64,000 nucleotides of DNA from Candidatus Omnitrophota bacterium (GTDB taxonomy: Bacteria > Omnitrophota > Gorgyraeia > Gygaellales > Profunditerraquicolaceae): assembly GCA_041651035.1 (NCBI GenBank), contig JBAZKC010000001.1, positions 579,244-643,243 of the forward strand, read 5' to 3'. The position numbers were made by a program, and so were the translations under genes. Below the pieces are notes generated by a model. The model saw nothing but the letters and a program-made list of their open reading frames with translations. It was not told where the DNA came from and made no database searches. Numbering within the stretch: position 1 is the first letter of the stretch; each line of letters starts with the position of its first letter. Shown one piece after another: positions 12,001 to 39,000 of this stretch.

Positions 12001-15000
12001 CACAAGAGGTATGGACTTCTGATGTCCAGAGGGCAAGAAGAGGCGCTTTAACCGCCTACGGCAAGATGATGATAATTCCTCAGATGGTTTCTGTAATGAC
12101 ACCTCCAGGAGAGGATTCAGAGGCTTTTATGTACTTGCAGAGGTCCAATCCTCAATATGAAAGCACCCAGATTGACTGGTTTATGTTTGAATGGGGCCGC
12201 GCTGCGCTATTTGCTGAATCTATCGTAGGGACAGAAACGCGCTACGGATATAACTGCACACGCATGTTCTCTGACAGGGGCTCATTTGAAGTGTTGCTTA
12301 ATAAAGACCTGGGGTATGATAAGAAGTTATCCCATCTCTTTTTATTCTTCCATTATTTCGGGGCCATATTTTCACTTGCCCTTTTAATGACCCTGCCGTT
12401 TATATCTCCTTTCAGCGCTTTTGCTTTTCTCAAGCCGGCTATCGCATTTGCGGCTTCAGCCAATCTGTTAATGGAGGCAATAAATCTCTGCGATTTCATC
12501 AAGCATTTAAGGAAAACCGGATCTTTCTTGATGGCTATGGCATTTACGGTAAAGGATATTATTATTGCATTGCCGGTTTTTGTTTTCTTGATACCATACT
12601 TCTTTAGAGCTGTTTGGCTTGCTAGTAACGAAATTTTCAGTTTTATCCTGACCCGGAAAGATGCACTTTTACAGAAAGTCAGCAACCAGCAGCGTTGGGA
12701 TGATAAAGATTCTGGTATAATGCTTTTCCGTTTGGGAGGTAAAAAGAGATGGCCATTAAACGGTTTATTGGGGCTAATCGGGATAGCCGGCTGGTTAGTC
12801 AATTTGTTTACAGTAACTTCTTATGGCTCGGTAATTATTATTCTCTATTTGGCCGCGGGTATTGTCTTCTTATCAGGAATGTATGTTTGCGGTGCGTTTG
12901 TGGATAGAAAAGGCAATCTTAAGGGCTATAGCTTTTGGGCCATGTTTAAGATGCTGCCGTATTCGATTAGTAAAACAATATCATATTTTCCTGTGGTAGG
13001 TAAATATTGGGATTGGGTGGTTTATAAAATATGTAAACCTTTAGAGAAGGGGCTCATTAATATTCCAACTTCGTGGGGATTGAAAGCACGATTAAAGTTA
13101 TCCAGGCCATTAAAACCTTTTAGTTTAAAATCTCCCACGTTGGTAGGGCGTCTTAGTAAAAATATTGTTACTGGTGGGGTGTTCATTTTCCGAGCCATAA
13201 TCCGCACTATAACAGTTCTAATGGCTTTTGTTATTGGCTTTGGTCCAGCTTTATTAAGCGGGGTACTTAGTAACCCTATTAGCCTAACATTGCTTTTTAT
13301 ATCTCTGCCTTTGATGGTATTTGTCGGTTCGTTCTTTAATGGTTTATTCACTCCTTATTGGATATTGCGCGGAATCTTAAAAAATAATGAATGCCATACT
13401 AAAAAGCAACCCGCTGATTCATCTTCTTCGTCCTTGTCTTCTCCATCTGTGTCTTCTTCACCCTTGGTCTCTCCGCAGCTGGTTAAAAATTTAAGGTATA
13501 ATTCAAGCAACCCGGTGTCTAGTATTAATCCTGATAGAACTTATTTTGATCTAGCCGAAATGTATGCTAGCTCTAGCGCTATTATGAGTCCTTTAGGACG
13601 ATTAGAAAAGCTTTCCATAGAGGTCAATGTTCTTGATATACCAATTGAAAGAACGTCGTTTGGGAATCTGTTGATTAACAACGGATATTCCAAATCGTTT
13701 ATTCAATATTTACTTACTAATCCAGAAGTTAGAATATTTGAAGCTAATCGGGGAAAGTATGTTTCATATAGTATCTTTAAGTTGATAGAGAATTCTACTT
13801 TAAAGGAAGCGTTAGAAATAATAAATAAATATTTCCTACCTCTTAATGAAAATAATCCAGATATTTCTGCTTCGGTAGATTTTGAAGAATTTCTAGATTT
13901 ACAAAATAAATATAAATCCGGAGAACTTAATCTCAATCACAGTAAAGTATCGCAATTTGATGTCATTCTACCTAAAAAGCAAGTGAGGAGTTTTGAAGAT
14001 GCGATTTTACAAGAAAGGATGTTTTTGTTTAATCTTGATAACGAAGGAAAAAAGATGGTTGCAAAGGGAGAGATTGCTGAGATAGTCTCTGCTGGTGGCA
14101 CTTCTGGGAGATTCTTTGGTTATAAGGTAAATATACCTGAAAGTAGAAAAATAAAAGCCATTGTTCCTATCTGGAAAATTATGGGACGGCTATTAAGTAA
14201 TGTTGAAGTTCGTATGAGATATTTGAAATATCTAGTGGAAAATACCGGCAAAGGGCATATACCTTTGGTGATTATGGGCAGTGGTAATAATATTGAGTAT
14301 TTAAAAGAAATAACACGAGGCTATAAAGTTTATCCAGAGGGAGATTTATATTTTTATTCTCAGGGTGAAATAGCAAGACTAAATCCGGCTGAGAAAGATA
14401 TCAGATATTCGGGCGCTCCAATTGATGATGGGAAATATAATCTTCCCCATGGGGAAGACGCAGATGCAAATGTGTCACAATGGTTATCCGATAATGGTGA
14501 GATAGGAGGTATTTTCAGAAATGATGACGGGACATATACTGGAAAGCCAATTGGTCCTTTTGATATTTTTGCTAGATTGGTTTTAAGTAGAAGGCTACTT
14601 GAGTTAAGAGAAAAAGGAGTCAGGGTTATCCATCAAGCAAATGGTGATAATGTAGGGGCTATTTTAGATCCAGCCAAGGCAGCCTATTTGATGAAGAGAC
14701 GCGATATTGACATGTTGGTGCTTTTTGTAAGGAAAAATATGATTTATAGTTTAAGCAAAGATAGCCAAGTTTTTAATGAGCAGATAAGGACTAATGATCA
14801 TTTTGCTTTCCAAAATGGCGTAAAGGATTTCATAGTTATTACCAGAGATGGAAGAGTTATTAGCCATAATTTGCCAAAAGGAGTCAAGCCTATATTAAAA
14901 GAAAGTAAACTATCTCTTACATTTAAAGAGGAAGCTTTAATATCTAATATTGAAGGGCAAGGTGAAAAAGGCGGAGTTCTTGTTCATGCTCTAGGAGAAG

Positions 15001-18000: not shown

Positions 18001-21000
18001 CTTCAATTAACAAAGAAGAGTTACAAAAATTAACAGCTGACGCTAATAGAATTGTTACTGCGATAGATGCTTTACCTCAGAGTCTTTCTTCGTTGATTTA
18101 TGATACTTTACCAGATAAAAGGTCATGCGTTTTGGCATTTGGTATACGGGATGGCGGAGGGTATGAAGCCGAGGCGGATATTTTTTATAGAAATAAAATC
18201 AATGCCCAGAGTTTTGTTGCTTTATGTTTAAATTCCAGTAGCCCAGTCTCTATAAATATTTTTACCACCAAAGAACTTAAAGGGGAACTAGAGATATTAA
18301 AGGGGAGAAAGATTCATATTGATTATCAGAAAGATGTAGATGGGCCTCAGACTGCTGCTAGATTGGTTAAGGATGTTTTCCGACAAGTAGGAGTTATTCT
18401 TAAGGAGGCCAGCAAAGAATCTGAGGTTTGTGTTTGGATTGGCGAGAGTGACGAGTATATGCAATTTTATTTTATCATCTCCGATTGTTTAAATCCAGAA
18501 AAAAGCGTCAGATTTGAATGTGGGCCGCGCGAATTAACAGCATCAATCATGACAGCAGTTTGCCTGTTCTTCAAAGAAGAAGCAGCCACCCATTCTACAA
18601 ATATTATGCAGCTTATTCTTCAACTCGATAGTACCAATAGGGAGCAAAGACAGCAGGCCGGGGACCTTCTTGTAGGACAGTCACAAGAAGCTATTAGGGA
18701 AATCTTGCGTTCTGTAAATGAAATTAATAGGGTAATAATGACAGCCGCGATTTCCGGCGATTTACAAAAGGCGATAGATGGCATGTTATTGTTAGGGCGT
18801 AGGATTGAGATATTAGGCCGCATAGGCAGCGTTGAAGGCATAGAAGCCATCTTAGACGCGTTGGCAGACTCGGCCGTTGCTTTTACAAACACAGGCTTAA
18901 AAGAGGCTGAAGCGCTTAATAAAATTGCCCTTAACGCAATCGTAAATATAGGCAAGCCCGCGGTTCCATACTTAAAAAAGCATATAAATGATTCACGCCG
19001 GCCCGTACGGCAAACAATCTCGTTAGCGCTTTCGCGCATAGAATCTGCCTCTTCACCAATTAGAGGCCTAAGTTATACCGAAACCCTGCTTGACGGCATT
19101 CGGATAATTAAAATAATAATTAATCCAAGCCATTTCAGGCTCAGGGCGTCAATTCAGGGAAATCTTAGTAACAAGATGCACTGGGATGGCCTTGAAGGTA
19201 TTGTTTATGCGGGTAAAGAACCGCTTTTAGACATCAGCAGTCGTATTTGGAGTATTGATAATCATAAATCCAAGATGGCCCCCGGATTTATTGGAGTTGT
19301 TCCTTTCGGCAATATATTATGGCATCCATATTATGTTCTTTATCAAGATGGACGGGCTTATCACAGATACGGAGAAGAAACGAATATCGCGGCGCGCATG
19401 CGTTATCCCACTTTTGTGTTTTATAAAGACGGGACTTTTAAGTTTGAAGATACTGATTTTAACACCATAGATAGGGGTAATGTTCAAACAATTATAGGTA
19501 CTAACTTGGCAATAATACGCGATAGCAGAGAGGCAGCCTTGCGGGATATCCATTTTGAAGACATACGGCATGTTTTTCGTTTCCCTATAATAAAGGTGAA
19601 GTCAGACTCTAAGAGCGCTTACGGCGGCGATATTGCTATCGGCCGCAAAATTATTTATGGAGATGAAGAGGCAAGAATGAAGGCTTACGCCGGCAGGCCT
19701 CTTGAAATTGAACTCAGCCAGTATGGCATTGATTATTTACAGGCTAAAAAAGCTATAGAGTTTGCCAGTTACCGGATGGTGGAAGACAGGAATAAAGTTT
19801 TTGCGCGCGGCGACGCATATTTAGATGCCAGACAGGGCATAGTTAATATTATATTCCAATATTCGCCATACCCGCAGTTTATTATGACTCGGGATGATGA
19901 TTCTAATTTAGTATTTTACGCATTTGGCGGAAAATCAGGGCAGGAAGGCTTAACATTAGGCAGAATCCAAGATTATCTTATTACTGAAGGAGCCAAAGAT
20001 GCGCTGGTGCTTTGTAACGGAAGCGATGTGTTTGTTGAGCTAAATGGCGCTACTATAATGCCAAGCTGGAACGGGAGGGATCGTTTTACTTCGTTGCTGT
20101 TTGTTTATCCTGAAGGAGTAAATAATTCTTTACCTGTTAATAATAAGAAAGTTCCGGTAGGTAGGTTAAAAGTTAAAACCAGTTCTCCTCTCGGCGCCCT
20201 TATATGTACTGAAGGAATTCAGCGGATACTGGCAAGTTCGCCAATAATAATGATACAAGATAATAATTTCCAGCAAGTCTTAAATCAGATAATCGGCTCT
20301 TCATCCCATCCTTCAAACGCACCGCCTGTAATAAGTATCAGCAGTTCTCCCCTCATCCACCGCATCGCTGTTCTCACCGGAGGCGGCCCAGCCTCAGGGC
20401 ATAACGAGGTAATCTACTCCGTGGTCAAGCAAGCCTCAGAGTACGGCATTGACGTAATCGGCATACCTCAAGGATGGCTGGGCTTAGTTGACGAATCACT
20501 GTTAAAAGAGCATAAGGTGCTTACCTTAAGCGACGTAGAGCCTCACCGCTATGAAGGAGGGACTATCCTTGGCACCAGCCGCACTAATCCTTATCTCAGC
20601 AAAAAAGACCCCAAATACAATATAGAGAACTACAACAGCAAAGAAGCGGCCCTAAAGGCATTCCAGGATGATGAACTCAAAGCCAGCCAGCTCTTGCTTA
20701 ATAACCTGCACAAGTTACACATAGATGCCTTGGTTACATGTGGCGGAGACGACACCAACTCCGTATCCTATATGCTCTTTAATCATACCGGCTTCCCGAT
20801 CATCGGTATGCCTAAGACCATGGATAATGACATAGCTTTCCCTGAACCAGACGCAGACACCTACGGTTTTGACAGCTTCGTGAAAGCGGCAATTCCCATG
20901 GTGCAGGCAGGCATAATTGATGCCCAATCCACCAACCGTCTCTTACTGGTAGAAGTCTTTGGCCGTAACGCCGGTTTTGTGGCTATGGCCATAGGGGCAG

Positions 21001-24000
21001 CGGTAGGAGCTACCCGCACCTTGATTCCTGAAGAAGGTAAACTTGATATAGCCAACATTGCCCAGCAGATAGCCGCTTACCATAAAGAAAACAACTATTC
21101 TGTGGTTATCCTCTCTGAAGGTATCAAGGTCATCCGCGACTTTGCCGACAATAACCGTATCCTGGAAGCAGCTTTTAGCAATGATCCTTTAGCCAGGGCT
21201 GCCTATGAGATGGCGGCAAAGTCCGCACCTGACCAATTCGGCCATCCCAAGCTGCAGAATGCAGACATCATCATGGCCGCAGCCTTAAAGGCAGCCTTCA
21301 AAGAACACAAAGAAAGAATAGATATCAGCCGTTCAGGCAAGTTAGACTACCTTATCCGCTCCGCTCCCACCTCAGAGAAAGACCTCAACATGTGCCGCCT
21401 CCTGGGTGAATCCGCTGTAGAAATGCTCTTAGAAGGAGAAAAAGGAGCCATTGTCTACTACCACCAGGGCCAAGCTAAGACCTTAGCGCTTACTCCTAAA
21501 TTAGGCGGCAGGACAGTTGACATAGAATCAGCCCATAGAGAAGAATACCTTAAGGCTAATCAGGCGTTTAAGATAATAACCAGCTCCCCACTTGGCTCCC
21601 TTGTCCGTACTGAAACAAGACAGTCAAGTTCTCCCTTTTCAAAAACCCTGCTCACTTTCTCTTTAACAGCCCTACTGTTTATATTTTCCTTCTTCCCCAC
21701 CTCCGCCTTTGCCCACTACTTCAAGGACACCCCCCAGGGTAGGGTAGCGGTAGTGGAAGAATGGTCCTCAAAGGATCCCCAGGTAAACACCTTAGGCGGC
21801 ATCGGCAAGGATATACTGGAAGCAAGAGGCGAAGAAGCCACCCTGGAAGCTCTTTACGGCAAAGACGGCAACAGTGGCATAGTAAGAGAGCTTAAGGATG
21901 TTAATAATCTTCCCACTGACTTAGTTTCCCCTGGCCAAGAAATCAAAGTGCCAGCAAAAGATGTCCCTGTAGCAAAAGAACAGCCAGCCCCTTCCCCTAA
22001 AGAAGAGATTAACGAGTCAGAGCGACAAGTTAAATCTCAAGATAAACAAGACAAGAAAGAAGCAAAAGAAGTGGCAGGCAAGCATAGAAGTTATCTTCTC
22101 TGGGCCTTGTTTGGCGGCGCTGTTATTTGCTTAGGTTCAGCATTCCTTCTGATATTGGGTAAGTTCAAGTCTAAGAAAAAAGTAACGCCGCCAGCAGAGA
22201 AAGAAAGTGGAAAGCTTTATACTCCAACTCCTACTGCAGACTGGTCCTCCAAGCTCGGCCTTCAGGAATCCGACCGCATCCATATGACCGGCCTGCAGCG
22301 TAAGCAGCGTAAACTACAGTCTCTGACCCCAGATGAGCAGTCAAAACAGCAGTTGGAGATCGGTGCAAACTTTCTGCCCTCCGCGCTCTTAACAGACCAG
22401 CAGCGCAAAGAAAAGCTCGGTGCCGAAGAATTTACCGTCATTGAAGAAGATACAGAAAATGCCTCTTTTGCCAAAGACAACGTAGCAGTTAGCTGCCATC
22501 CCATGGATGGAGGCTTAGGCACTGGCGTTGTCCGGGAAGACTACCTTGAGATTGATTTAGGGCGCCCCAAAGATGATCCTAAGACTAATCGGGCAAAGCT
22601 AGGGGCCAAGGCCACAGACCTTTTTATTGACTTTATCGCAAAAGGAAAAGACGCACAAGGTAATCCTGAAGATGTCCCGGTAAAAGTCTCTATTGCCGAA
22701 ATCAAGTTCCTGCGTGTCATAAAGGATGCCCCGTTATTTAGCGAAGTAGTTTTCCAGCCGCTGGTAAATGACGACTCCGCGCCTTCCTACCATAAACTTT
22801 TAGACAGTGTTTACCTGGAAGATGTCATTGATAATACCGTCAGCGAAAAGAGGGCCTACAGGCAGGTCCTGGCAGAAAAGGGCATTAAGCTTGCTAAGGG
22901 CGACAATGATGAGGTGATGCTTTATCAGAAGGACTTACCTATTATAGATATCGAGACCGGGGAATTGACCGATAAGTTTACCGCACCCGGCGGCCATGGC
23001 CAGTGGGGGGTAAGGCTCTTATATGAGGCCTTAGGCTTCAGGCAGCCTGAAGGTGATAAGAAAAGCTATATCCGGGCCTTCTACAACGGCGACGGCATTG
23101 CCAACTTCCCGCCTGCCTCTGTCTTAGGCTGGATGGCCAGAAATAAGGTTCCCATCATTATGATCTCTACCACCAAGGCAGGGTTAGATAAGAAAGGCGG
23201 TCAGATTGGTATTCAGAGACTGCCTGACGGCAGCTTCCGTATACAGATGCTTGAGTTAGCCCAGGCCAAGAAGCCCGGCAAAGATCATGAAGAGCTTTTC
23301 TACTCTATCGGCCTGGAAGGAAATCCCAATATCCCGGGCAAAGATATCCTGGGTAAGGATCCCGAAAAAGACTATACCTACACCAACCAGCCAGGGGCTC
23401 AGTATTTTAACACCAATATCGCCTTGATTAACTACAGCGTGCTTGCTCCTATACTCCAGGAGCTAGCCAAAGAAGAAAACGTAGAGTTTGAAGGAGAAAC
23501 CTTAAGCGGCAGAGAGCTCATTGAGCGCATCATTTCACCTGATTTGATTGAAAACGTCAAGGACAAGAAAGACGGCCGCAAATACACCCAGTTAGAAGGG
23601 GCTATCGGCTCAAGCCTACTTAATCTGAATGCCTTCCTGACCAGCCGCGGTAAGCCGATCCTTAGGGTGGTAAATGTACCTACCGATCTAAGGAGTGAGG
23701 TCTTTACCCCGGTAAAGAATGCCTTTGATTTCATCTTCCAGAACCTTTCTGATTACTATGTGGTAGACCAGGAAAACTGGACTCTACGCGACAGAAGCAA
23801 GGGCCAGGTGCCCCCCTTGGTGGACCTTAAAGAAGATAAATTCTACGCCAATGTCCATAACTGCATCAATGCCTTCGGCAAACTCGCGCTTATTAGCTTA
23901 GAGCATTTGAGCATTGAAGGCAGGGTGCAGCTAAAAGATGCTACCTTAAAGGGTGAAGTTAAGATAATCAGCAAATACCCAGAGGTATTTGACTTGAATT

Positions 24001-27000
24001 CCCCTGAATCCAGAAAGCAGCTTAATCAGGAAGGCGAGCAGCCGTTAATCCTTGAAGATATTAAAATTAACATTAGTGAAGATGGGAAAATGGACATAAG
24101 TGGTGCAAGTTCTCCTCTACGGGTTCCCTTGCAGCAAGTCCGCTCCAGCAGCCCGATAGATTTATTTACCATTAAAGATTTTGTATCCCAGCATCCGATT
24201 TTAACTGTTATTGCTGTTTATGTATCGTGGAAATTATTGAAATTGGTCGGTAAATGGCAGAGAACTATGGCAGCAATAATGCATTATCGGCTTAAACCGC
24301 AAGAACTTAAGTATTTAAAAAATAAGTACCCTACCTTTTTGCAAAATGAAGGGTATTACAGGAAGGTTCTTGATAGATTAGTGTGTGATAGAATAAACTC
24401 TGGAGATTGGGGTAAAGTTTTAAAGGGTGTAGAGGTTATTAATAGACGTTGGGAATATGTATATAATCCTCAAGAGTCCATCTCTTTCAAATATGTTATC
24501 AGCCGACCCGAACCCTATATGTCGAAACAGTTAGTTGTTAAGAAAATGACTTTCTATCCCCATTTTATAGAGCGTCTAAGTCTTCTTTATGAGGTATGGC
24601 CGGAAATGGCAGAGGAAATAATAGATGCAATGCTTACTCATGAAGAAGGCCACCTGCGTAACTATTACAAATTTATGGAAGGCAGTATATCGGGAAAATA
24701 TCTGGACGAAAATGATGAAAAACTCGCCTTTGATCATCTTAAAAATGAAAAAGGAGAGAGGGCCATGGCCCTGACAACATGTTGGTTCCAGGCCTATATG
24801 AATCCTTCTTATGAGCTAGAGATGCACTCTCGGGAGTATTTCTCTGAGTTTAGGCCGATTTTCTTTACTTTAACCCCTCAGGTCTTGGATTTAATTTTAG
24901 GCATAGAAAGAGAATATCAAAAGAGATTGGCTTTATCTAGACTATCGAAAGAAGGGGGTGTCTCTAGTAGCCCCATTGTAACAAACGGCGATCTTTACGG
25001 CTACTTGTCGGCTCCACTCAAGACTATCAGCCCAGCCATTAATTACGATGTTAGTCCTGAAGAATACCAGGAACAGCTGAATAGGAATTTTGCGGATAAA
25101 GACGCCGAGACAGAAAAAGTCCTTAAGCTTTCGCAGGCCAAGCTAAACCGGCTGATGCAGAAAAACAGAATGGTTTTCTTGCCTACCTTGGAAAGAAACC
25201 GCGAGCATTCTGCGTTCATAAGCATTGATCTCGGAGACGCTATCGCATTAAATAGATACGCATTGGATATTCAGGGCATAGTTCTGCAAAGTATCGGGGA
25301 TATAGACAAGATAAGGTTTAGTGATGTATCTAAGCTGCACGTCAGCTTAGTCAATAATACGATTGGCAATCAGACTGTAGATATCAGCAATAAGGCGCTA
25401 AGCACTCTTTATTTAGAACACATGGAGGCTTTTGCATCCCTTACTGCCTTTGATGTGAATATTTGCGGCCCACATCTTATGCCGCCCCTATCCATTGTGC
25501 TTGAGGTGAGAACTAATGCTCCTCAGCTTAAAGCTTTTAGAAAGCAAGCCCAGGAGATTTTGGACAGAACCGCCCCTCAAGAAGGCGTCATTGGATTCGT
25601 CCCTGATATCACCCATATATCCTTAGGTTATATTGTTGAGACACAGCGCAGAGAACTACAAGAGCTTTATCGACTCTTAGAACAGATAAAGAAAGACGCC
25701 GTGCCGTTTCCGGTGACCGCATCTCAGGTCCAGATAATCGCGTCAATTAATAAAATGATGGTAAATGATGGGGCAATAACAGTTACCTTGCCATGCTCCT
25801 CCAGCCCGCTGGAGAAGAAAGGCTCTTTTGTATCCAGCCTGAAGCGGACACTACGATCCCTGCTCAAGCAGGTCAGCAAGCTGCCCATAGATAAGATACT
25901 CAATTTAACTCCTTTAATCGGCTTAACCCTGTTGTTCAGCGCCTGTATTGTTATAGATAATGCCCCGCGGGATCCGGAAGTCGAAGCGCTTAAAGCCAAA
26001 GCGCTCAGGTACGGACTCCTCTTTGCGTTCGTTGTGGCGTTCTTACCTCTGTACCTAGCGCCTATTGATAGAGCTGTACGCTATATTGCGCGCTCTATTA
26101 AATCCCTGATGACCATAGAAAAGAAAGGTCCACCCGCTGCAACCCCTGGGCAAAAGACCCCCGCGGCAAGAGATAAGGATAAAGCTTCCTCCAACCCGGT
26201 ATCCGTTATTAATAATGAAAATATTCCTTGTGTTATTTGTGGATCAAAAAATATCACTGTCCTCTTAGAGAGATATTTAAATGATCATTACTGCCGGTTA
26301 GTTAAATGCAATGAATGCGGTTTAGTTTGTGCCAACCCAATGCCTTCATTACAGCAATTAAGAAAAATCTATTCAGAGGGTTACTTCTTAAGTGCGAATC
26401 CGCACATTATAGGTTACAGAGATTATTTAGAAGAGAAAGATATAAGGATTAAAAATTACAGTTATCTTTTAAACATGTTAAATGAATTTAAAGCTCAAAA
26501 AGGCAGATTATTAGATATTGGCGCAGCTTTTGGCTATTTCCTGGTTGCCGCAAGAAACGCAGGCTGGCAGGTTATTGGCACGGAGATTTCTTCCTATGCC
26601 AGGGGTATGGCAAGAACTCTCTTTGATCTAGATATATTGCCTTTAGAAACTATAAAAACAGCGGGATTCCCCAGCAACACATTTGATGTAATTACGTTAT
26701 TTGATGTGTTGGAGCATTTCTCTAATCCATTGGAAGAACTATTAGAAATAAACAGAGTTTTTAAAAAAGACGGTGTTCTTCTATTGAGGGTTCCTGTATT
26801 AGATGATCGTGGGCTAGAAGGCCCTATAGTGAAAGCCGGTCACTTATTTTATTTTACCATTCCCACGCTTGAACTCTTGCTTCGAAAAGCAAATTTTAAA
26901 GATTTAAGAATTTACGGTGATCCTTTTAATAGCGATATATCCCATGTAGTTATTGCTGGAAAAGTTTCGAAGAAAGCTTCTGCGCCGGCGACTCATAAAG

Positions 27001-30000
27001 AAAAATCCAGTTCTCCCTTGGGGGCGCTGCTGTGTACCCAATTGAAGCAGAAAGGTCGCTCCAGTCCTTCGACTCGCTATGCCAATAGGATGAATAGCTC
27101 GCTCAGGACTAATGGCGAGCGAAGCCGAACCACCAGCTCGCCGGTTATAATACTTCCCTCAAAGAGACAGCTTAAGAGTTTAACCTGGGGGTTCTACGTA
27201 TTTGAAATCCCTGAATCCCAGGTAGGCGGCATTGCCGATGTTGCCATGGGCCTGCCCGAGGAAATAGTAAGGGCAGAGACCGGCGACGGAAGGCCGCACA
27301 GGGTATTCAGGGTTTCTCCTTATTATCAAGGCATGGAGGCCATGACCAATGGCGTTCCTCTTTCAAGCCTAAAGGAAGTCTGTCAGTATCGTATTCCTTA
27401 TCAAGAAGGTATCGAGATTGTAGAGGTGTTTAAGCGAACGCTTGACAGCGGGATTACCGATTATTTCCTGGTAAACCCGATATTTAACCGCGCTTATGAT
27501 AAGTCCGACCAGAATAATCCTGACGGCGCCATCAAAGAAATAGCCCTCTTTAATATGGCCTCTGCCATGCTGCTTATTTCAGGAGAGACAGCTGCGGATG
27601 TAATGTTTTTAGCTGACTGGCAGACAGGATTAGTTATCCCCTACCTTAGAGAAGAAGCCTTGTCTGAGTCGCGGGCAGCATTGAGAAGAATAGAGATCAT
27701 GAAGGGCTTCCGAAAATTTAAGGCAGCTAGTTTGGTAGATGCTTTTATAAACAGAAGGTCGCTAGAGAAAATAGTGCCTATCTGCTGGATTAATAACGAG
27801 GCCTATCGCGGACAGTTCGCGATTACCGGAAAAGAAGATTTTGAAAAGAAGACCGGACTATTCGGCCAGGAGAATTTTGAATGGGCGCGTTGGACTACTC
27901 CGGGTCGGGAAGACGAAGTCTTTATGGTTATCCTAAAGCTGGCTGTGGAAAGCATTGCTGCCACAGGAGGAAGGATAGTTACGGTAAGCGATACTTATGC
28001 CAAGGAAATTATGGGACAAGACCTTTATGCCGGAGAGTATCCGGGGATGTTGCACGGAGTTTTAAGACGCACCAAGGTAACCGGGATCTTAAATGGCGTA
28101 AGTCTTAACTGGAGATATGTCCATGACATCAGGGAAAAAAGAGAGAAGAAATTAGCCCTGCAGGGAAGCCTGGGATTAGAGAGGGAAGGTTCAAGCAGGC
28201 TGGTCTTTATGGTAAGCCGGCTGGTGAGCCAAAAGGGTATATCCTTGTTTGTGGACGGCGCAAAACAGATAGCCTTTTTACTTAAGAGATATCCTAAAAT
28301 GCAACTGGTTTTAGGGGGGCCGCCTGAAAAGTACTGGTTGAGCCGCTTGGAAGGACTCAAATCATTTTTACAATCAAAATTTCCGAAAAGGGTAAAAATA
28401 ATTTTGGACTTCCTCCCCGCGGAAGGTTTAACCAAAGATCTTTTAATCGGCGGAGACATCAATCTGTTTCCTTCTCTATATGAGCCTTGCGGTACCGTAG
28501 GCAAAGCAGCCATTAATATGGATGTAACTATAGCTCGGTTGACCGGAGGTATTCGCGAGAGCGCAACGGAAGTAGATATTCTTAAAAATACAGGAAATGC
28601 CTTTACCTTCGAGGATTATACGCCCGAAGCACTTATTGAGGCCTGGCAAAGAGGTATGGATTTAAGCCTGGATGAAGAAGTATGGCAGGGTATACAGGAA
28701 GCTACCCCCCAGACAGTAATAACATGGGAAACGCAATTCCAGAAGTATGCCAGATTAATATATGAGGCGCGTAGGGCTAAAGGGCTGGAAGCCAGCTCGC
28801 CGCTGGCGGCCCCTGACAAGGCCGGATTATCCTGGATCCAGCGGCACGCGCCGCTTTTAAAAGATAAGATCATAGTAACCATTTCTATGGAGGGCAATAT
28901 TCCTGAATTCGTCGGTAATATTGCCCAGGATGCCAATACCAAGGGCGGGTTAGGGGCGTATTTTGGAGATAAGCTTGAGGGTCTGGCTAAAATAGGCATG
29001 CAGGCCTTTGGCATACAGCCGGCATATTCCATTATGGAAAACGAAGGTAGAGGTGTAAAGCTGGCAGTGGATTATGAACAGCTTATTCGGCAAGGCATTG
29101 TCCAGAGGCTTCTTGATAAGAATGGCAATCCGATGGTGCTTTCTGTAACGAGCTGGTATGACAATAATAATGATAATGACAAGAACGGGCTTCATCAGGA
29201 TCGCTGCGTAGAGATGCAAGTCCTTAAAGTCAATCGCGGAGGAACTCCGCTGTTTTTATTAGTCTGTCCCGAAGTTTTTGACGTGCTTTATACCACCAAC
29301 AGGGTGCACCGTTTCACCCAGGAGATGGTTTTCGGAAAAGCTGTTTATCAGTTATTGACCAGGCTTAATATTGTCCCGGATATTCTGCATTTAAACGAAG
29401 CGCATACAGTAGTAGCCGCGGCTAAAATAAGAAGCGACGATAATTTTAAGAAGACCAGGGTCGTCTATACCAACCACACTGTTGTTCCTCCGGGAATGGA
29501 AATTTTCCGTGAAATAACCGAGCAAAAGATCGTCAACCGCATGATGTATTTAATCGATGAAAGTCACAAGCTTAATGAAAAATTCATCAAAAAGGGCATT
29601 GTTGATTTCTGTTATGCTGCCACTCAACTGGCAGATATCATTAACGCAGTCAGCGATGAGCATGCTCTCAACACTAGGAAGCTCTTTGAGAATGTATACA
29701 AAGAGCAGTACGGGGAGGAATTTGACAAGCAAGTTATCGCTATCTTAAACGGCTCAGGGGATTTCTGGCTGAGCGATGCTTTGGTGGTGATTCATAACAC
29801 AGGAAGGCTGGCTACTAGAGAGGAAATTTGCAGCATCCATGAATCCTCAGAGAAAGAGGCCCTGGAAGAAATCAGGGTACGCACAGTTAGTTCCTATGAT
29901 CCTGAAGGGATAAAGCTTGACCCCAACAAGCCGACCATTTGGGCAGTAAGAAGAATCGTAGACTATAAGAGTCAGTATCCTATGTTGCGGTTCCTGGTGC

Positions 30001-33000
30001 ATCTTATCTGCGCTGACCGCGACAGGCACTTCACCAGGGATGAGCTTAAGAGGCTGTGGTTTAGGGATATAGGAGGCTTGGCTAATGCCTACCGATACAA
30101 CCAATTAGGGTTGAGGGAAACAGTAGAGACTGTCCTTGACCGTCTTTTTATAGGCAGAGATGAAATTAATGGTTTGGGTGGGCAAATAGTGGTGGGTGGG
30201 CCTACCTTCGGCAGTTATTTGCAGGAGTGGGTAAGCGAATTTAAGAAATGGACTTATAATGTTGAGGATCTGCGCGGAAGATTCGTGTATGTCCCTTGGT
30301 CTGATGCCAAGTTGCTTAAGATGCAGGCAATCGGCGCAAATATCTGCGTTGATTTTCCCCCCTATGGCGATGAGGCTTGCGGAACTTCCCATCAAAGGAC
30401 AGCGCTTAACGGAGGTATCGTTATTGCTATAAATGGCGCCGGCCCTGCGGAAATGATGTCGATGTCGGAAAAGATAAGGCGTTTTCTTTTTGGTCCCTAT
30501 GTCATTCAGACCAAAGACGGACTGGTGAGTGATAATAAGGCCTTCTATAATTGCGCACCGCCAGACTTGTTTGGGAAGCTAGAGATGGTTACCGCGGATT
30601 TCTACGATAATAAAGAGGCGTATAAAGACGATATGTATAGTTTTTATCTGGCCTCCCAGAAAGTTACGGCCCAGGCCATGGAAGAGCGGTATACAGAGCA
30701 GGCTTATCTACCCTTAGTTGATAAGGCCGCCAGCTCTCCGGTGGGGGCGCTTGTAGGATTGCGGTTAGATATCAGAAGAGACCACGCCAGCGCATCATTA
30801 CAAAGATATAACCATCAGCAAATTCTAACTCAAATAATCGGTTTTCCAGCTCATGCTATCCATGCTCCGCCTCTAGCTAGCAGCAGCCCGCTTGCATCCC
30901 AGGCCACAACTGCCCCCGCAAGCTCCCTGCTGCAGAGAATAGCAACATCTGCCTCAAAGCCCTTAGCCGTCTTTATTCTAACCGTCCTATTAACTATCTT
31001 TTCTTTCCTCCCCACCCCCGCCTTTGCCCACTACTTCAAGGATACCCCTCAGGGCAGGGTAGCGGTAGTAGAGGAATGGTCCTCTAAGGATCCCCAGGCA
31101 AACACCTTAAGCGGCATCGGAAAAGACATGCTGGAAGCAAGAGGCGAAGAAGCCACTCTGGAAGCCCTTTACGGCAAAGACGGCAACAGTGGTATAGTAA
31201 GAGAGCTTAAAGGTGCTAATAATCTTTCCACTGACCAAATTTATCCCGGCCAGGAACTTAAGTTACCAGCAGAAAATACCCCTATAGTAGAAGAACAAAC
31301 AACTCCTTCTAAAGATCAAATTAACAAACCACAGGTCAAGCCTCAGGAAAAACCAACCAAGGAAGAACAAACCAAGGAAGCCCCAGCCAAGCGGAAAATC
31401 CATATCTTCTGGGCCGTAATCTCTGTCTTATTTACTGGTATCCTTATATACCTAGGCAAAATATTGCTCATTAAGATACTACGCAAAGTTAAACCCGCCC
31501 CAGCCCCTGCTGTTCAAACCCCCGATATCAAATTCGGCACCTCAGGTTGGCGCTGGGATGAATACAACGAATATACAAAAGACGGCGTATTCATGGATGA
31601 CTGGTTCTTAAACGACTTCTATGCCGCCATACAGGCCTGCGCAGAGGAAATATTAAAGCAGGAACAGCTTAACCCCAAAAGAAAAGGCGTTATCATCAGT
31701 GGCGATACCCGCTCAGTAGGCCCCTACACCAACCTTGACCTGGTGGAGATGGCTACAGATTACTTAGGCAAGGCAGGAATATACGTAATCAAGCTGGAGC
31801 AGTATTGTCCTATTCCGGCAGTCTCCTGCCTGATCAGCCGCCTTAATGCCGCCGGTTCCATATACTTCACCGCTTCGCATAACCCGGGTAAGGGTTATTC
31901 TATTACCAAAGAAGACGGCTCTACCATGCAAATCAATAACGATGGCATAAAATTCAACCCTGCTGATTCCGGGCCCGCGGGAGAAGAAATCACCGGCCCC
32001 ATAAACCAGCGCAGCAATGAATTAAGGAAGGCAAGCTTCGGCACCAGATGGTGGGAGGATATTATCAACCGGCAGGAAAGTGTTACGCCGCTGAGTTATT
32101 TATTTACTACGGCATCTATAGAATATATTGAATCTCTTAAAGAAGTCATTGATTTTGACATAATTAACAAGGCATTTAAGCAAGGGGATATAGATTATAT
32201 TGTCATTGATACCAAGCACGGCGCAGCAGTGGATTATTACCGTGCTATTATTGAATATTTAGGATTAGAAGAAAGTAAGGATTTTGAGATCATCAACGCC
32301 GAACACGACTCAAGCTTTACCCAGCTGGTTGACCCTGAAAACAACATCTCTCGTCCTGACCGTCCAGAACCGGATGCCAAATACTCTAAGCATTTAATAA
32401 CAAGAGTAAAAGAGCTCAGCAGCCAGGGTAAGAAAGTCATCGGTGTTGCCTGCGATGCTGATGCTGACAGGAATGGTATTGTAGACAGCACAGGCACCTT
32501 CCTTGACCCGAACATGACCTTAGCCATTATCTCAGAGTATGCCTTGCAGCAGGCCTTCATCAACTGGCTGGAACTTAAGTATCCGGAAAAACAGCTAGCC
32601 TGCGATGATTTTATAGAGACAGAAGACAGGCGGGAACAGTTCAAAGCCTTGACCCAGGAATTTATCGCAGAGCAGAATGTCGGACTAGCCAAGACTATAC
32701 CCACATCCAACATGATCAATGCCATTGCCGCTATCTGGGGCTGCCGCCTTGAAGAGACCAAGGTAGGCTTTAAATGGTTCAGGCCCTACTTATTGCCTGG
32801 CTCTGAAAATCCAGTCCTGGTTGCCGGAGAAGAGTCCCAGGGTCTAAATATCCGCAGCCAGAGAGAAAACCCCAGGTATATAGTCCTGGAAAAAGACGCC
32901 CTGGTAGCCGGCTTAAAGATGCTGGAAATAGCCTCCAGGACCGGCCTTACTCCGCTACAATTATCCGATAAATTACAGGAAGGAATAGGCTACTTCGCCT

Positions 33001-36000
33001 ATAACCGTGGCGGCGTAGACCTGCGCACTAAGACCGACCTGGATAAGATAGATACCTTAAAAGCTGCCCTAAAGAAACAACTAGATGCTTTAAAAGATAA
33101 GATATCCAAAAAAGAAACAACAGAAATCTCCGGCAAAGCCATTGCCCAGCCTATCTTTGATGACGGCTACAAGCTGGTATTTGCTGACGGCTCCTGGCTA
33201 TGCATACGCTTCTCCGGTACAGAGCCCGTAGTAAGGCTATACACGGAAGCCAGCGGCAAGACACCCGAAGAAGCAGAAGCTACTCGCCAGGTTAACCAGA
33301 AGATCGGTGAAGAGCTATTGGAGTTAAAGAGTAGTGAGCAGCAAGAGGGGGAAGAAGATTCAATAGCTCTTGCCACCGATAGTTCTAATGTGTATAATAA
33401 TAATATGGAAATGGATATTGCAAACGAAAAACAGCAAGGCGCTATTGTCGCCGAAAAACTCCGTACTCCGCTTAATACGGCTGATGAGTCAATGGCCAGC
33501 CATTTCTTGGAAGGCGGATATGGTCAGGTTGGTTATGGCGTACCTGATGGCGCAGCAGTGGATGGTTCACATACCTTTGATGAAGAGAGTATCCAGGGAT
33601 ATTATGCAGGTAAGGCCGGCAAACAGGCATTCTTAAAGACAGTAAATGCGTGGAAAGTTTTCTTTGCGAGTAGAGCAGAGAAATTAGGTAAGCGTATTAT
33701 AATCATAATTAAGATCGGCATCGGAGGGCAACATACGCCATTTCAGGGTATTGCTAGCGGGATTGAAATAATTGATGCGACGACTGGTAAGATTATAGGC
33801 GAATATGAATTAGGCAAGGATTTTGAATCTGCTATAGCCAGCATATTAAAACAGTTTAACGCCGGTTGGGACCAAATTGCGGTTATTCCCAGCTCCAAAT
33901 CAGGTTCCACTGATGAATCTATGATGGTATTCGTTGAGATCCTGTATGTTATTTTAAAACACATTGCGATGCAAAAAGGTATCAACGGAGAACAATTTGC
34001 CAACACCGTTTTAAATACGTTGCATGAAGTAAACTTTATAGATGGCAAAGAACGCGCAGGAAGAGATTTATTTAAGGGCTTTAACCTCAAGCTGATTAGC
34101 GATAAGATAGGCGTGGACGATAGTTTAGTTAAAGAAATATTCGGCATAGTCTTGGGTAATATGTTCTTTGAGACTACGGACAGGCCTGATCAGAGCCGGC
34201 TTTCCGCGTTTATCCGTAATTCCGGGTTGGATGAGGAATTAGGCGAAGATGCCCCGGGATTTGGGGCGATGTTTGATAATGTGGGCGGCCGCTGGACAGG
34301 CGACCTGCATATGATGGCGTTTCTGGCATTCCATAAGCTTAACGCCAAAAAATACTGGAAGAAGCGTTATAATGGCATAGTTAAGGTTGTTAAGGGAAAA
34401 CATGCAGGGAATGTTTTAGGGAATAAAATACTTGATGAAATAATTACGGATATCGCATTAATTGTTCCGGACTGGCTATTCTGGTTCGGTAAGTCCTGTG
34501 AGCAGAATTTCAACGAAAGTATCTGGCAGCTAGGATTTGCCAATTTAGTAACCATTAAACAGAGCCATTGGGATATGCAGAAGAGGCATTATGAAAACAA
34601 TCCTCACAAGCTGGTAATCAACCTATGTGGTATTTCTATCCCGGATACGTTTAATGTCTTTAAGGTAAAATTACCTAAGTTAGAGAAAGTTAATAAGCAG
34701 AAATTAGTAGGAATATTTGCGGAGCTTTTTACTACATTCTATGGTATGACCAATACCGTAGGCACTCGCCTTATCGCCCGCGCTTTAATAAAAGCAGGAT
34801 TTACGGCTTCTGACGTTGATATGAATGATTTGGATAAGGACGCCACTAAAATTGTCCAGCAAAACCTTTTCTTACGGCAACCGTATGTAGAATTGGGTAA
34901 GGTCTTATTAGAGAAGAGACTAAAAGAATTACAGGAAGAAGAAGCTAAAAAAGCAGGAGCGATTGGAAAGGCATTAGAAGAGGTTAAGCGCTTGGCCAAA
35001 GAAGGAAAGCTTGAAATTAGTATCCCCGGTATGAACGCGCCTGCAAATATTAAGAACGTAGATGAGCTTGCGGAAGTAATGCGCCAGGCAATTAGTTTTG
35101 CTAAGACTAATAACCGCAAATTCGTGCCTTTCATTTACCTGGAAGGCGAGAGATTCTATGGCTTGAGAGATTATTTAACAGAATTAGGAATAGAATGGGT
35201 TATGCAAGGTACTGGCGACCAGCATATCAGTTATCAGCAGGTATTAGCCCAGCCGCAGAAATACCTGATGTTTATGATTTCTTTCGTTCCAGAACAGGCT
35301 CTCCCCGGCAGGCCGGCAATTGGTTTTGCCAAAGGTTATCTGAATAAGATCAGCCCCAATATGGTGCGGGATTATTTTGCCGAGGCTTCTTATAAGGCCC
35401 TGACTGAACTGCGTAAAGAAGAAGGCGGGAGAGGCCTATTCTTAAGATTAATTGATTCTGTCGATAATTATGACATGTTAAAAGACGCTATGAAGATAAG
35501 CACAGCAAAAGAATCTGAAAAAAGAGCTAATGCTGCTTATCCTTTAGCTGTTGATGCTGAGGCCCAAAAACAAGCCGAACAAAAATACGGCAAAGGGAAA
35601 GTTTTAACCGATATTAAAGTAACAGATTTTAGCCTGAAACAGCCCAAATCATTTTTGGATAACCACTACGAAGTTTTAAGACAAAGGCTAGAACAGCTAG
35701 AGCAACTCTTAGGCCGCGCGCCTCCGGAACTCGCTAATTGGACTCTTGTTATTACCACCGATTTATCCCTCACCCAAGACAATGTCGCTGCCTGCGATAT
35801 CACCACAAAAACAGTCTATCTCCATCCATATTTCTTTAGTCTCCCTGAAGCCAAGCAATTAGAGATTCTCTACCATGAACTTATCAGCCACATTACAAAA
35901 GGCATAAGTGATGAGAAAACAGCAATACAGGATACAAAAGAGTTTGCTGAAAATGAGCTTGTTCTTAGTCGAATTATAGATTCTTTAGAGAAGATCATTA

Positions 36001-39000
36001 ATTCCGACCCAGAATCTGATATTCCTACATTTCTTAGGGCTAAGACTGGTTGCAGGGATATAAATTGGATGAGGGCAGTGTTAGTAGCTAGCCGGGGTTT
36101 GAATAACTCCTCCAGTTCTCCGGTAAAGAAAGAAATACTTGCCGTTGAGACAACCAGAAGGACTTTCGTAAAGTTGTCGCTTGCCGCCGCCGGCGCATTA
36201 GAATTATTACCTATATCTGCCTGCTCAAGAGAAACTTCTTCTCGGAAAAATATCCCTCCCGGTCAAAGAATTCCCCAAAAAGCCATTCCCGTAAAGCAGT
36301 TATCAGGGATAAAATCTTCAGAAACTCCGGCTTCAAAGCCACAACCCGAAACCACCGTAGAGGAAGTTAAAGAGCTAACCACTGTCAGGCTCATTACTGG
36401 GGTTAATGGGCAATGGTTTGACCCTAAGGATAAACAGGGATATACCGTTTGGCTAAACGCCAGAGGCGGAGTAGGAGAGATGTTTGATTTATCCGGCGTT
36501 GTTGCTTTACGCATAACATTCCCCAAGGAAGCGGTCCATAGGAAATTCGTTGTCAGCCTGCTTCCCGTAGGAGAGAGTACGACTCTTTTCACGCCCGTAG
36601 GCTTAAATACCAATATTTATACTGTTCCCGAAAGCCGTGTTGTAGAAATTCCTATTTCAGAATTCCCGCTATCAAGGAAGGAATTGAAGAAGATACTACA
36701 AATTCGTATCCATTCCGGCTCAAGCGCAGGGGATATCCCATTATATCAGAGTCCGGATGAAGAGGTGAGATTTGGGAAGATAGAGGTAATCATCCCCACT
36801 AGACTGTTAAATCGCCCCTCAACCAGACGCGACCTTTTTGCAGAATTGTTCCTGGTAGGCATCCGTCGTAGTCTAGACCAGCCTATAGATTCAACGGTCG
36901 GCTCGTTGGTAGCTATGAATGGCCATAGCAGTTCGCCTCTAAAGAAATCCGCATCTTTGCCTCAAACAAACATAAGAAAAGTCAGCAAAAGTAATTTTCT
37001 AGAGAAATATCGCGGCATAGCTTACGACGAGGATGGATTCTATTATCGCGGTGAGAATGAAAAACCGGCGCAATTTGTAGATGTGCTTAATGAGGCCCTC
37101 CAGCAAATAAAAAGTATTATTCCGTTTCCTCTCGGCCCTCCTTTAGAAGTGAATGTGGTGTCTAATCTTGGCGTGCCGGCAGGTAAATATATCAGTCCTT
37201 CTCAAGAGGTGTCACTTGTATTCGATGAGCTCTATGTTGAGAGCCTGCTTGGTAATAGGTATTTTTATCCCCAGCTTACCGTAGCCATTTTATCGCTTTT
37301 AATCGCCCACGAATTAAAGCATACCGACGAATTCCGTTCTGGCTGGAGAGAGAAGATAGAAGAATATTCTATAATTTCAAGAATAGATATACCTGTTTAC
37401 AGGAAATTAATTGCCCATCTGGGCCTTGAATTAAAAGCTCTCCTTAGAGTAAATTCTCTAGCTCATCTAAAAAGTTACATTACGGAATTAGAACAGCTAA
37501 GCAGCATGAATTCTATCAGCCGCTCGCTTAGGCTTATTAAATTAGTTAGAGATAATTACAAGCCTTTAGTTATAAAGAAGGTAAATCTAAAGGTGGCGAG
37601 AAATTCCATTCTTCAGGTAGTTGACCTTTTTGTGGCAGCTACTTTGTTTGGGATTTATTTGGTTTATCCTGGAGTAGCGTTACTTAAACCCGTCGTACTT
37701 TTCTTTACCTATTATATTACATCCTCATTTACTAAGGCGATAATGTCATTTGCGCAGGAAAAACAGCTGGTTAAATATATAATTAAACCAGCCGGCTTAT
37801 TATTTTTATTCATAGAGAAAGCGCTTTCAAGGCCTTATTCCGTTCCCCTTATCTTCTTTGGTTCATTGACAGTTTTAAGCTTTATCCGTGGAGATATGAA
37901 TGATGCGGCTCTATATACGATCTTTATGGGTTTCTCATGTTTATTCCCATTTTTATTCTCATCAGGAAAGATAGAAAACGTCAGCTCAGAGCTTTCTATA
38001 AAATGGGGAATTAAGCCTTTATCTAATGGGGAAAACGGAGCCCGTTCCAGCTCGCCACTAGGAGTGTTGCTGCGTAGTACCCGATTGAACTGTAACAGCC
38101 ATCCCGAAGACAGCCAATCTATGTCTGCTTTTCAGGATGAAACGGGGATTACAAGTTCTTATCCGGGCATAATTACCCAGGATAGGCAAGCAAGGGGAAT
38201 CGTTATAGATGAAATTGAATTTCTTTTACGCGCATTAAAAATCGATTTATCGAAGGATCAAACGGATAAGATTTGTAAATTTAAAATAGATGGAACTATA
38301 ACCCAAGAATATGACGAAGCAGAAGACCTTTATTATAGAAAATTATTTTTTATTGGTTTTACACTTTTAGCTTGTTCAATATCTGCTATTATTTATCTTC
38401 TCATTTCTGTATCGTCGTCTATTATTCTTATCGGCATTTCCCTTGTCTTCCCCTTTATGTTGGCTTTTTTTGCTTACCGGTATGTTACGAATAAAAATCT
38501 TGGTCCAAATCAAATTGATAATTCATTTTATGTATCCGGGTTCGTAGAGTATAACGGGGGTTGCGCAATAACTATAAGAGGTTATAGAAATAGAAGAAAT
38601 GAAAATGCTTATGGTGTTAAAGGATTGCGGAAAACAATAGCGCATGAGTTTATTCATATGCTGCGATTAGCGGGAATTATTAAAAGCGATGAATATGCAG
38701 TAACGGTTGAGGAACTTCGTGCTGCAGAGTTAAAAGATACTCATAGTTCGTATCAGAGAGATGGGATTATTAATAAAGGGAGAGAACTTCGTCGTTCTTC
38801 AATAACTTTACAAGAGGCCGTTATTTTAGCAAGAGAAGAGGCGAGTGGGCTGGATTTGGCTTCTCCTAATTGGCTTTTTATGGAAACTGGGGAGCAACTG
38901 CTTAAAGAAAATTATTCTTCTTACGTATTTGGAGCATATATAGCTGGTATCCTTTTGGAAATGGGGAATATTGTTGAAGCGTGGGAAATACTCCGTAGAG

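Follow-up and report, generated by a model that had tools for sequence, protein, structure and literature searches.

The stretch analysed here (64,000 nt, hereafter the window) comes from an assembly of a Candidatus Omnitrophota bacterium (GCA_041651035.1, contig JBAZKC010000001.1, positions 579,244–643,243) and lies within a single giant reading frame that contains two copies of a cassette built around a LysM-like domain. The stop-free frame (3–63998, forward strand, frame 3) is open at both ends and codes for at least 21,332 amino acids (aa). It has no stop codon over 64,000 nt compared with 718–2002 in the other five frames, and the listing of open reading frames (ORFs) contains no other ORF longer than 196 aa in the window, so that the window represents an interior section of this one long ORF. 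Pfam scans place domains over the full length of frame 3, and all features described below are in this frame and on this strand. An original prediction, made from the letters of the sequence, had proposed one ORF that crosses the membrane repeatedly, and the uninterrupted frame supports it.

Each copy is a cassette of ~200 aa with five parts: a [ST]SSP[LF] junction, a signal-peptide-like helix that ends in AFA-HYF in both copies, an 81-aa domain, a linker, and a transmembrane (TM) helix, after which comes a Lys/Arg-rich stretch. We consider it rather probable that these are paralogous cassettes within one giant gene of the Archaeovorin type, that each forms an in-out-in membrane staple with a LysM loop, and that they derive from an old duplication whose core was later gene-converted.

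The junction of cassette A is a double motif, TSSPLGSLVRTETRQSSSPF (21579–21638, aa 7193–7212), that aligns with SSSPLAS of copy B and reads TSSPLGSLVRTETRQ-SSSPF, followed by SK, TLLTFSLTALLFIFSFF and PTSAFA. The hydrophobic, charge-free signal-peptide-like helix (21636–21713; F-S-K, TLLTFSLTALLFIFSFF, PTSAFA, then H7238) leads into the atypical LysM-like domain (21714–21956, aa 7238–7318), which opens with HYFKDTPQGR and closes with QEIKVPA. After it comes a Pro-, Lys-, Glu- and Gln-rich linker of ~45 residues (21957–22091) that is largely predicted to be disordered; in the AlphaFold model of the cassette, residues 117–158 have a predicted local distance difference test (pLDDT) score below 50, residues 112–141 have no secondary structure, and a long helix begins afterwards. 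The second TM helix (TM2; YLLWALFGGAVICLGSAFLLILG, 22092–22181 together with a stop-transfer-like KFKSKKK) has a Kyte-Doolittle value of 2.28, has six Lys/Arg in the next 15 aa, and lies within this long predicted helix (model residues 142–187). As a whole, the modelled cassette consists of a helix (residues 7–25), a break at PTSAFAH, a folded domain, the disordered linker, and a single long helix within which the second hydrophobic segment falls.

Cassette B is collinear with copy A but has a 22-aa n-region between its SSSPL junction (aa 10293–10297) and the helix PLAVFILTVLLTIFSFL / PTPAFA (together 30879–31028). Its LysM-like domain (31029–31271, aa 10343–10423) is 86% identical to that of copy A in amino acids, and its linker, TM2 (~aa 10467–10490; Kyte-Doolittle 2.38) and KILRKVK (31272–31493) align with their counterparts in copy A. 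The order of signal or TM segment, LysM, Pro/Lys-rich spacer and TM helix that had been proposed is thus present in both copies in all its parts, as is the peptide quoted for it.

At the nucleotide level, the sole direct-repeat family that a repeat search detects at 20–33 kb pairs 21664–21963 with 30979–31278 (300 nt, 85% identical without gaps, spacing 9315 nt). Identity is 89.8% between 21690–21925 and 31005–31240 at an offset of 9315 nt (3105 codons), and it drops to 32% at an offset of 9318, the one implied by the originally proposed position of copy B (31,008–31,243). The module of ~235 bp duplicated 9.3 kb apart at ~90% identity is therefore real and its copy A correctly placed, and the position first given for copy B is shifted by one codon (3 nt). 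Among 200,000 random 236-nt pairs drawn from the window, the highest identity is 39%. Protein homology extends beyond the nucleotide repeat (aa 7193–7395 versus 10293–10500, 64% identity) and takes in everything from the upstream SSP motif to the second helix, including the first hydrophobic helix, the domain and the linker. A search of the window's 21,332 aa with a cassette profile (hmmsearch --max) finds no third copy, all other matches having E > 2.

The cassettes are set among enzymes of glycogen and sugar-phosphate metabolism. A phosphofructokinase (PFK) unit (20361–21428, aa 6787–7142; Pfam PFK, 180 bits) lies directly upstream of cassette A. Between the cassettes are a UDP-glucose pyrophosphorylase-like region (UDPGP; 23529–23936, aa 7843–7978; Pfam 39 bits against a cutoff of 22, with UDP-glucose pyrophosphorylases as its phmmer matches in the PDB), a plain TM hairpin (25899–26066) of two charge-free hydrophobic segments (aa 8633–8651 and 8670–8688, score 2.1), an S-adenosylmethionine (SAM)-dependent methyltransferase (26481–26906, aa 8827–8968; Pfam Methyltransf_23, E 1e-21), a glycogen/starch-synthase-like pair of glycosyltransferase domains, GT5 and GT1 (GlgA-like; 27204–28643, aa 9068–9547; Glyco_transf_5 E 3.7e-30, Glycos_transf_1 weak), and a divergent alpha-glucan-phosphorylase-like region (GlgP-like; 28941–30503, aa 9647–10167; Pfam Phosphorylase E 0.005 at ~aa 9817, PDB phmmer E 1.5e-5). 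A phosphoglucomutase (PGM) with domains I–IV (31527–33263, aa 10509–11087; Pfam PGM_PMM_I–IV, NCBIfam pgm E 7e-35) begins ~17 aa past TM2 of cassette B. The bracketing of a UDPGP, methyltransferase, GlgA and GlgP block by the two copies, as first proposed, is borne out by Pfam and by phmmer against the PDB, the GlgP match being weak but real.

The LysM-like domain

Profile comparisons and the predicted fold support the 81-aa domain being an atypical, insertion-bearing LysM. A profile of the two copies matches LysM proteins only among PDB sequences (LytE, 8i2e; a Thermus NlpC/P60 LysM protein, 4uz2), and gives 444 matches at E ≤ 1e-3 against 1.84 billion representative proteins. The six best of these were checked and have 7–10 Pfam LysM repeats each (397–556 bits), and most of the 150 matches listed (of 444) align, several times each, through domain positions 56–80 only, the C-terminal stretch. 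NCBIfam gives weak matches to YneA (a TM segment with LysM) and to a LysM muramidase. The AlphaFold model of the domain has a pLDDT of 90.4, and LysM structures are six of the top nine Foldseek matches in the PDB (4uz3, 4uz2, 4xcm, CEBiP 5jce, AtlA 2mkx, and MltD 8rhf), the best with a probability of 0.84 and a target-normalised TM-score of 0.66.

Alignment with canonical LysM repeats reveals both LysM signatures. The alpha-1 signature is present as NTLGGIG (canonical GDTLxxIA), and the alpha-2/beta-2 signature as NNLPTDLVSPGQEIKV (canonical NNLTSDxIYVGQxLxI), with the pattern NNLxxDxxxPGQxxK(V/L)P. The two are separated by a 19-aa insertion (ILEARGEEATLEALYGKDG) that contains an extra helix, and the LysM-like core is preceded by an extra N-terminal beta-hairpin. 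Compared with canonical LysM domains (PF01476; Thermus thermophilus 4uz2/4uz3, Enterococcus faecalis AtlA 2mkx, Pseudomonas aeruginosa MltD 8rhf), which provide the best fold matches, the domain thus keeps both signatures but is 81 aa rather than ~44 aa long, has the insertion and the N-terminal hairpin, and scores at or below the Pfam threshold; each cassette also has just one such domain, set between its two TM helices, whereas canonical domains are in tandem on a secreted hydrolase. Bacillus subtilis YneA (NCBIfam NF010723; weak matches from both copies, E 4e-4 and 2e-3) similarly has a membrane helix next to one extracytoplasmic LysM. At 18–20 bits against a 60-bit cutoff, however, the cassettes are not members of that family, and their LysM lies between two helices in a multi-enzyme giant protein.

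The only full-length homologue of the cassette is in P0107, a protein from a Candidatus Omnitrophota metagenome-assembled genome (MAG), with 43% identity overall. Its architecture matches that of the window's copies: ASSPV, an n-region, an h-region, ALA-HYF, the domain, a linker, a TM helix and RRRQR. Protein homology searches with cassette A alone or with the three-sequence alignment gave no cassette relatives, and scans of the genome and metagenome contig collections returned only the Omnitrophota contig of P0107.

Several observations weigh against a LysM assignment. Copy B scores 20.9 bits with PF01476, equal to the gathering cutoff of 20.9 and on model positions 21–43 only, and copy A has no match at E ≤ 0.01; the original prediction of LysM therefore stands for an atypical LysM, on profile, PDB and fold matches, and does not stand for a clear Pfam domain. 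All Foldseek E-values are 0.2 or worse, although values this weak are usual for so small a fold. The canonical C-terminal signature is degenerate in P0107 (ENQIPNPDLLKANQQISI), and the residues common to all three copies are mostly specific to this family (AHYF, PQG, AVVExW, NTLGGIGK, and ALYGKDG). As these are better kept in P0107 than the canonical C-terminal motif, the ligand is not certain.

The domain might thus not be a functional LysM at all, but a lineage-specific periplasmic domain that has a LysM-like C-terminal hairpin and either binds another ligand or serves as a spacer only. This would fit the Pfam scores at or below threshold and the pattern of conservation in P0107, which has no Pfam match of any kind and in which ALYGKDG of the insertion and HYF, PQG and AVVExW of the N-terminal hairpin are better retained than the canonical NNL...PGQ. 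Each independent comparison nevertheless returns LysM and little else, and all three copies share an unchanged alpha-1 signature, (N/D)TLxxIG, so that we regard a non-LysM domain as unlikely and an atypical LysM as the better description.

Divergence of the two cassettes

In the high-identity tract (approximately 21680–21920 in copy A, ~90% identical to 30995–31235) windows of 30 nt are 87–97% identical, and beyond either edge identity drops to 23–50% within ~60–90 nt. A core of 69 codons has a synonymous divergence (dS) of 0.34, a non-synonymous divergence (dN) of 0.039, and dN/dS of ~0.12 by the Nei-Gojobori method, and the central 220–240 nt are under strong purifying selection. In the remaining 116 aligned cassette codons the proportion of synonymous differences (pS) is 0.70, which is near saturation, and that of non-synonymous differences (pN) is 0.29. 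The contrast in pS (0.27 in the core versus 0.70 in the rest of the cassette) has a bootstrap 95% confidence interval of the difference of 0.24–0.63, and codons for the same amino acid differ at 13 of 62 positions in the core versus 27 of 54 outside it (Fisher p = 0.0016).

Purifying selection accounts for the low dN of the core but not for its low dS, and the pattern is best read as an old duplication, ~220–240 nt of which later underwent gene conversion that would itself not be very recent; the tract in copy A is the candidate conversion tract. The original prediction offered recent duplication or gene conversion, and the first of these does not agree with a core dS of ~0.34 and a pS of 0.70 elsewhere, while conversion of ~220–240 nt fits better. 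One point tells the other way: the core comprises only 69 codons, and its low dS could come from synonymous constraint instead of conversion.

If the cassette had been duplicated once as a whole and fairly recently, with no conversion and a core kept alike by stronger constraint, this would explain why amino acid and nucleotide identity vary together (amino acid identity being 93% in the core and ~45% in the linker and TM2) and why the core dN/dS is as low as ~0.12. Such an event predicts uniform synonymous divergence, however, where values of 0.27 and 0.70 are seen with a confidence interval that excludes zero and the Fisher test given above, and the core dS of 0.34 is already not that of a recent copy; we therefore find it improbable. 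Two other origins of the repeat were rejected. Similarity in a chunked self-BLAST is confined to the cassette and the short spacer that precedes it, which rules out a larger segmental duplication. Direct repeats bounding a mobile insertion are likewise ruled out, because the copies are coding, in frame and under purifying selection, and each heads a different enzyme unit.

An assembly artefact, in which one copy or a join was made by a collapsed or bridged repeat, deserves mention because repeats inside long genes are classic points of misassembly, and because these two share a frame, so that an open ORF over a chimeric join would reveal nothing. The ~10% mismatches are evenly spread, however, and the longest exact common run of 26 nt is shorter than the larger final k-mers of assemblers. 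The flanks are unique and coherent and contain different domains (PFK and UDPGP versus GlgP-like and PGM), and the cassette architecture is found independently in another MAG. We consider an artefact very improbable, and an old duplication with later conversion the preferred account.

The 2-kb bins that contain the cassettes (20001–24000 and 30001–32000) are the most G+C-rich of the window, with 0.48 compared to about 0.36–0.48 elsewhere, and only two bins (20001–22000 and 30001–32000) have a negative GC skew. Both properties probably reflect the coding of Pro/Ser/Thr/Ala-rich junctions and linkers.

Membrane topology

LysM domains act outside the cytoplasm on polymers of N-acetylglucosamine (GlcNAc), and PFK, UDPGP, SAM-dependent methyltransferases, GlgA, GlgP and PGM use cytoplasmic substrates. 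From PFK to PGM there are only three pairs of charge-free hydrophobic segments (starting at aa 7215/7368, 8633/8670, and 10321/10472), so that either none or two such segments lie between enzyme domains and never an odd number. An extracytoplasmic LysM with two flanking helices would place the adjacent enzymes in the cytoplasm.

In the proposed arrangement the signal-peptide-like helix would take the chain out of the cytoplasm, the 81-residue atypical LysM would be periplasmic on its flexible linker of ~45 residues, and the second helix with its Lys/Arg-rich stretch would return the chain to the cytoplasm, giving an in-out-in staple. The most likely ligand of the LysM-like domain would be peptidoglycan or some other polymer of GlcNAc. 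The enzymes of glycogen and sugar-phosphate metabolism on either side would remain cytoplasmic yet pinned to the envelope, with the LysM loops alone in the periplasm, which fits the pairing of the hydrophobic segments. As cassette A leads into the UDPGP unit and cassette B directly into PGM, the same anchor would serve enzymes of consecutive steps, from glucose 6-phosphate to glucose 1-phosphate to UDP-glucose. A point against this arrangement is that the positive-inside rule gives clear evidence at just one place, TM2 of copy A, where the Lys/Arg cluster comprises 6 of 15 residues.

The first helix of the cassette also has the features of a cleavable signal. The n-h-c layout of a Sec signal peptide is evident by inspection in all three copies: FSK / TLLTFSLTALLFIFSFF / PTSAFA before H in copy A, ...QRIATSASK / PLAVFILTVLLTIFSFL / PTPAFA before H in copy B, and KAKVKK / TFIMAVLACAIFF / SNLQPALA before H in P0107. 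In the window these segments are internal to the ORF, at aa 7212 and 10298. Extending the staple arrangement, the helix might be a true Sec signal peptide that signal peptidase I cleaves just downstream of AFA (of ALA in P0107). The giant polypeptide would then be severed at this point, and the part downstream of the cut would form a type I membrane protein with a periplasmic LysM, one TM helix and a cytoplasmic enzyme.

Small residues are present at -3 and -1 in all three copies (AFA, AFA, and ALA) and a helix-breaking P at -6 or -5; HYF is invariant at +1 to +3 although P0107 is only 43% identical, and the c-region lies within the strongly constrained core (dN 0.039). The h-region is preceded by the [AST]SSP[LVF] motif at a distance of 3 aa in copy A, 11 aa in P0107 and 23 aa in copy B, and a cut at the motif would leave copy A starting with FSK, the h-region and PTSAFA, a textbook signal peptide of 26 residues. 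The helix break of the AlphaFold model falls exactly at PTSAFAH, and the literature on these giants suspects cleavage at points that it does not specify. The conservation of AxA-HYF may equally reflect folding of the first beta-strand, however, and the 17-residue h-region with the c-region is long enough for a stable TM helix. Cleavage here is a tentative possibility that we hold to be somewhat doubtful, and an uncut staple remains the preferred form.

Cutting at internal signal peptides has precedents in the flavivirus polyproteins and the FbcH cytochrome b/c1 precursor of Bradyrhizobium japonicum. These have an n-h-c region with AxA, an exported domain, a stop-transfer helix and several functional units, as in the cassette. 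They differ from the present case in that the window's ORF exceeds 21,000 aa and belongs to a bacterial giant gene, and in that cleavage here is a candidate only.

Junction motifs and the giant-protein context

The motif [ASTG]SSP[LIVMF] is present 46 times in the ORF (aa 4484–20948, window 13452–62858; examples at 20340, 21579, 21624, 27006, 27132, 28791, 30729, 30879, 36111, and 46863) compared with 0.3 expected from shuffles; none lies in the first 4,483 aa. None of the 46 lies inside a recognised domain envelope (11.4 expected, P = 2e-6), and by a crude test they are not significantly close to the edges of Pfam envelopes (9 within 40 aa versus 9.0 expected). The motif is often doubled around a spacer of 10–55 aa, precedes both cassettes and that of P0107, flanks the PFK unit on both sides, and is absent from relatives with separate genes. 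Its codons are biased to AGC-TCG-CCG, even though TCG is in general used less often than any other Ser codon. No 9-mer is more common in the window than CAGCTCGCC, with 11 copies that are all in one frame and none on the other strand, and its longer versions likewise lead the counts for words of up to 12 nt. The codon bias hints at either a nucleotide-level constraint or shared descent of the junctions, and the motif could mark junctions or be a processing signal.

Two spacers of ~55 aa have the motif at both ends (20178–20354, aa 6726–6784; and 30729–30893, aa 10243–10297) and are ~31% identical to each other by self-BLAST, with the pattern xSSP[LV]GAL...QQ[VI]L[NT]QIIG...SSSPL. Shorter spacers bounded by the motif are at aa 7193–7212, 8035–8052, 9002–9048, and 13661–13683.

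The PFK unit provides a comparison from outside the window. Its closest relatives score 236–413 bits, compared to at most 143 for ordinary PFKs, and are all multidomain proteins, three annotated as Omnitrophica/Omnitrophota and one as Auribacterota. Homology starts at aa 6780–6785 in four of five relatives and ends at 7189–7191 in three of five, placing the unit between SSSPL (6780) and TSSPL (7193); the exceptions are P0152 and P0155, in which it runs to 7226 and 7228, P0155 being a fragment that starts at 6934. The cassette and the SSP motif are both absent from the closest PFK-bearing relatives at loci L003, L004, and L005. In L003 (Logan SRR22387811) and L004 (JGI 3300018425) glycolytic enzymes are encoded in rows of long, separate genes on the same strand, among them a GPI-TIM-PGK-enolase fusion longer than 3,050 aa. 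In P0152, a partial Candidatus Omnitrophica protein, the PFK unit ends in EYLKANQA as it does here and a hydrophobic segment follows directly (residues 769–844), with neither an SSP motif nor LysM after the unit, so that a membrane helix at this position may predate the cassette.

A more far-reaching scheme, which we think rather unlikely, is that the giant ORF is a polyprotein of gene-like units joined by [AST]SSP[LVI], with the cassette as a reusable leader, and is cut or interrupted at the junctions and by signal peptidases to give dozens of proteins, each with its own location. Equally speculative is the corollary that units keep their own N-terminal signals, two of the Sec type with AxA before LysM and one twin-arginine translocation (Tat) signal with a lipobox-like end (aa 12051–12075). 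The latter lies in 36111–36230 (aa 12037–12076), which reads SSSPV-KKEILAVE-TTRRTFVKLSLAAAGALELLPISAC followed by S, with the Tat consensus ten residues past the SSP motif at aa 12037. The segment TTRRTFVKLSLAAAGALELLPISAC contains the sole [ST]RRxF[LV]K of the ORF, a moderately hydrophobic h-region and a lipobox-like ISAC.

The remaining domains, all from Pfam scans, extend over the rest of the frame. An M23 (LytM-type) peptidoglycan peptidase is at the left end (39–302, aa 13–100; 94.5 bits). M23 peptidases are normally periplasmic, so that parts of the giant protein besides the LysM loops are probably exported. The presence of M23 and LysM-like domains in one ORF recalls the NlpD/DipM-type hydrolase regulators, which combine LysM with M23, but the M23 domain here is 7,100 aa from the nearest cassette and nothing links the two. 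Further to the right are a histidine phosphatase (His_Phos_1, ~aa 5204), a CheR-like methyltransferase (~aa 13705), a GlgB region with CBM48, alpha-amylase and C-domain (aa 14973–15613), a GlpX fructose-bisphosphatase (FBPase; ~aa 15724), a further methyltransferase (~aa 16468), HEAT and TPR arrays (~aa 16700–17500 and 18400–18500), and an HD domain (aa 20075–20238). PFK, UDPGP, GlgA-like, GlgP-like, PGM, GlgB, and GlpX FBPase constitute one pathway neighbourhood along the ORF (19503–50000), with the histidine phosphatase farther upstream of this series. HEAT-type segments, 27–43% identical to one another and scattered over 3,700 aa (~50050–61120, aa 16683–20373), are the only other internal protein repeats of the window.

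This system probably belongs to a known class of giant membrane proteins of Omnitrophota. Archaeovorins are giant Omnitrophota proteins with HEAT, GT5, GT1, TPR, PGM and FBPase domains and many TM helices (West-Roberts et al. 2023, bioRxiv 10.1101/2023.11.21.568195), and the window shares with them a very long single ORF, many TM helices, and HEAT, TPR, GT5, GT1, PGM, FBPase and other sugar-phosphate enzyme domains. Some domains described as common in Archaeovorins are not seen here: Pfam scans of the 64-kb window find no SecA-DEAD or SecA preprotein-binding domain and no C39 or S8 peptidase, although these may be encoded outside it, since the ORF extends beyond both ends. The domain content and the nearest homologues point to the window being part of an Archaeovorin-type giant gene with a known length of at least 21,332 aa, to be set against usage in which proteins of at least 30,000 aa are termed giant and those of at least 10,000 aa 'long' (bioRxiv 10.1101/2023.11.21.568195; 10.64898/2026.06.07.730766). 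Neither West-Roberts et al. 2023 nor Nielsen & Lui 2026 mentions LysM or describes a signal-LysM-TM cassette or the [AST]SSP[LVI] motif, and a literature search for LysM together with Omnitrophota returned nothing related.

In the giant-protein literature the membrane topology of giant Omnitrophota proteins is described as ambiguous, and cleavage is suspected at points that are unknown. A LysM between two helices would be a fixed topological landmark in such proteins and would put the neighbouring enzymes of glycogen and sugar-phosphate metabolism on the cytoplasmic side, where earlier predictions had such enzymes outside. AxA-HYF and the SSP motif are concrete candidate processing sites. Confirmation of that role would explain how the cell inserts and anchors a polypeptide longer than 20,000 residues and perhaps divides it into functional pieces. 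Even if they have no such role, the two cassettes would still illustrate how an anchoring cassette can evolve in concert within a single gene.

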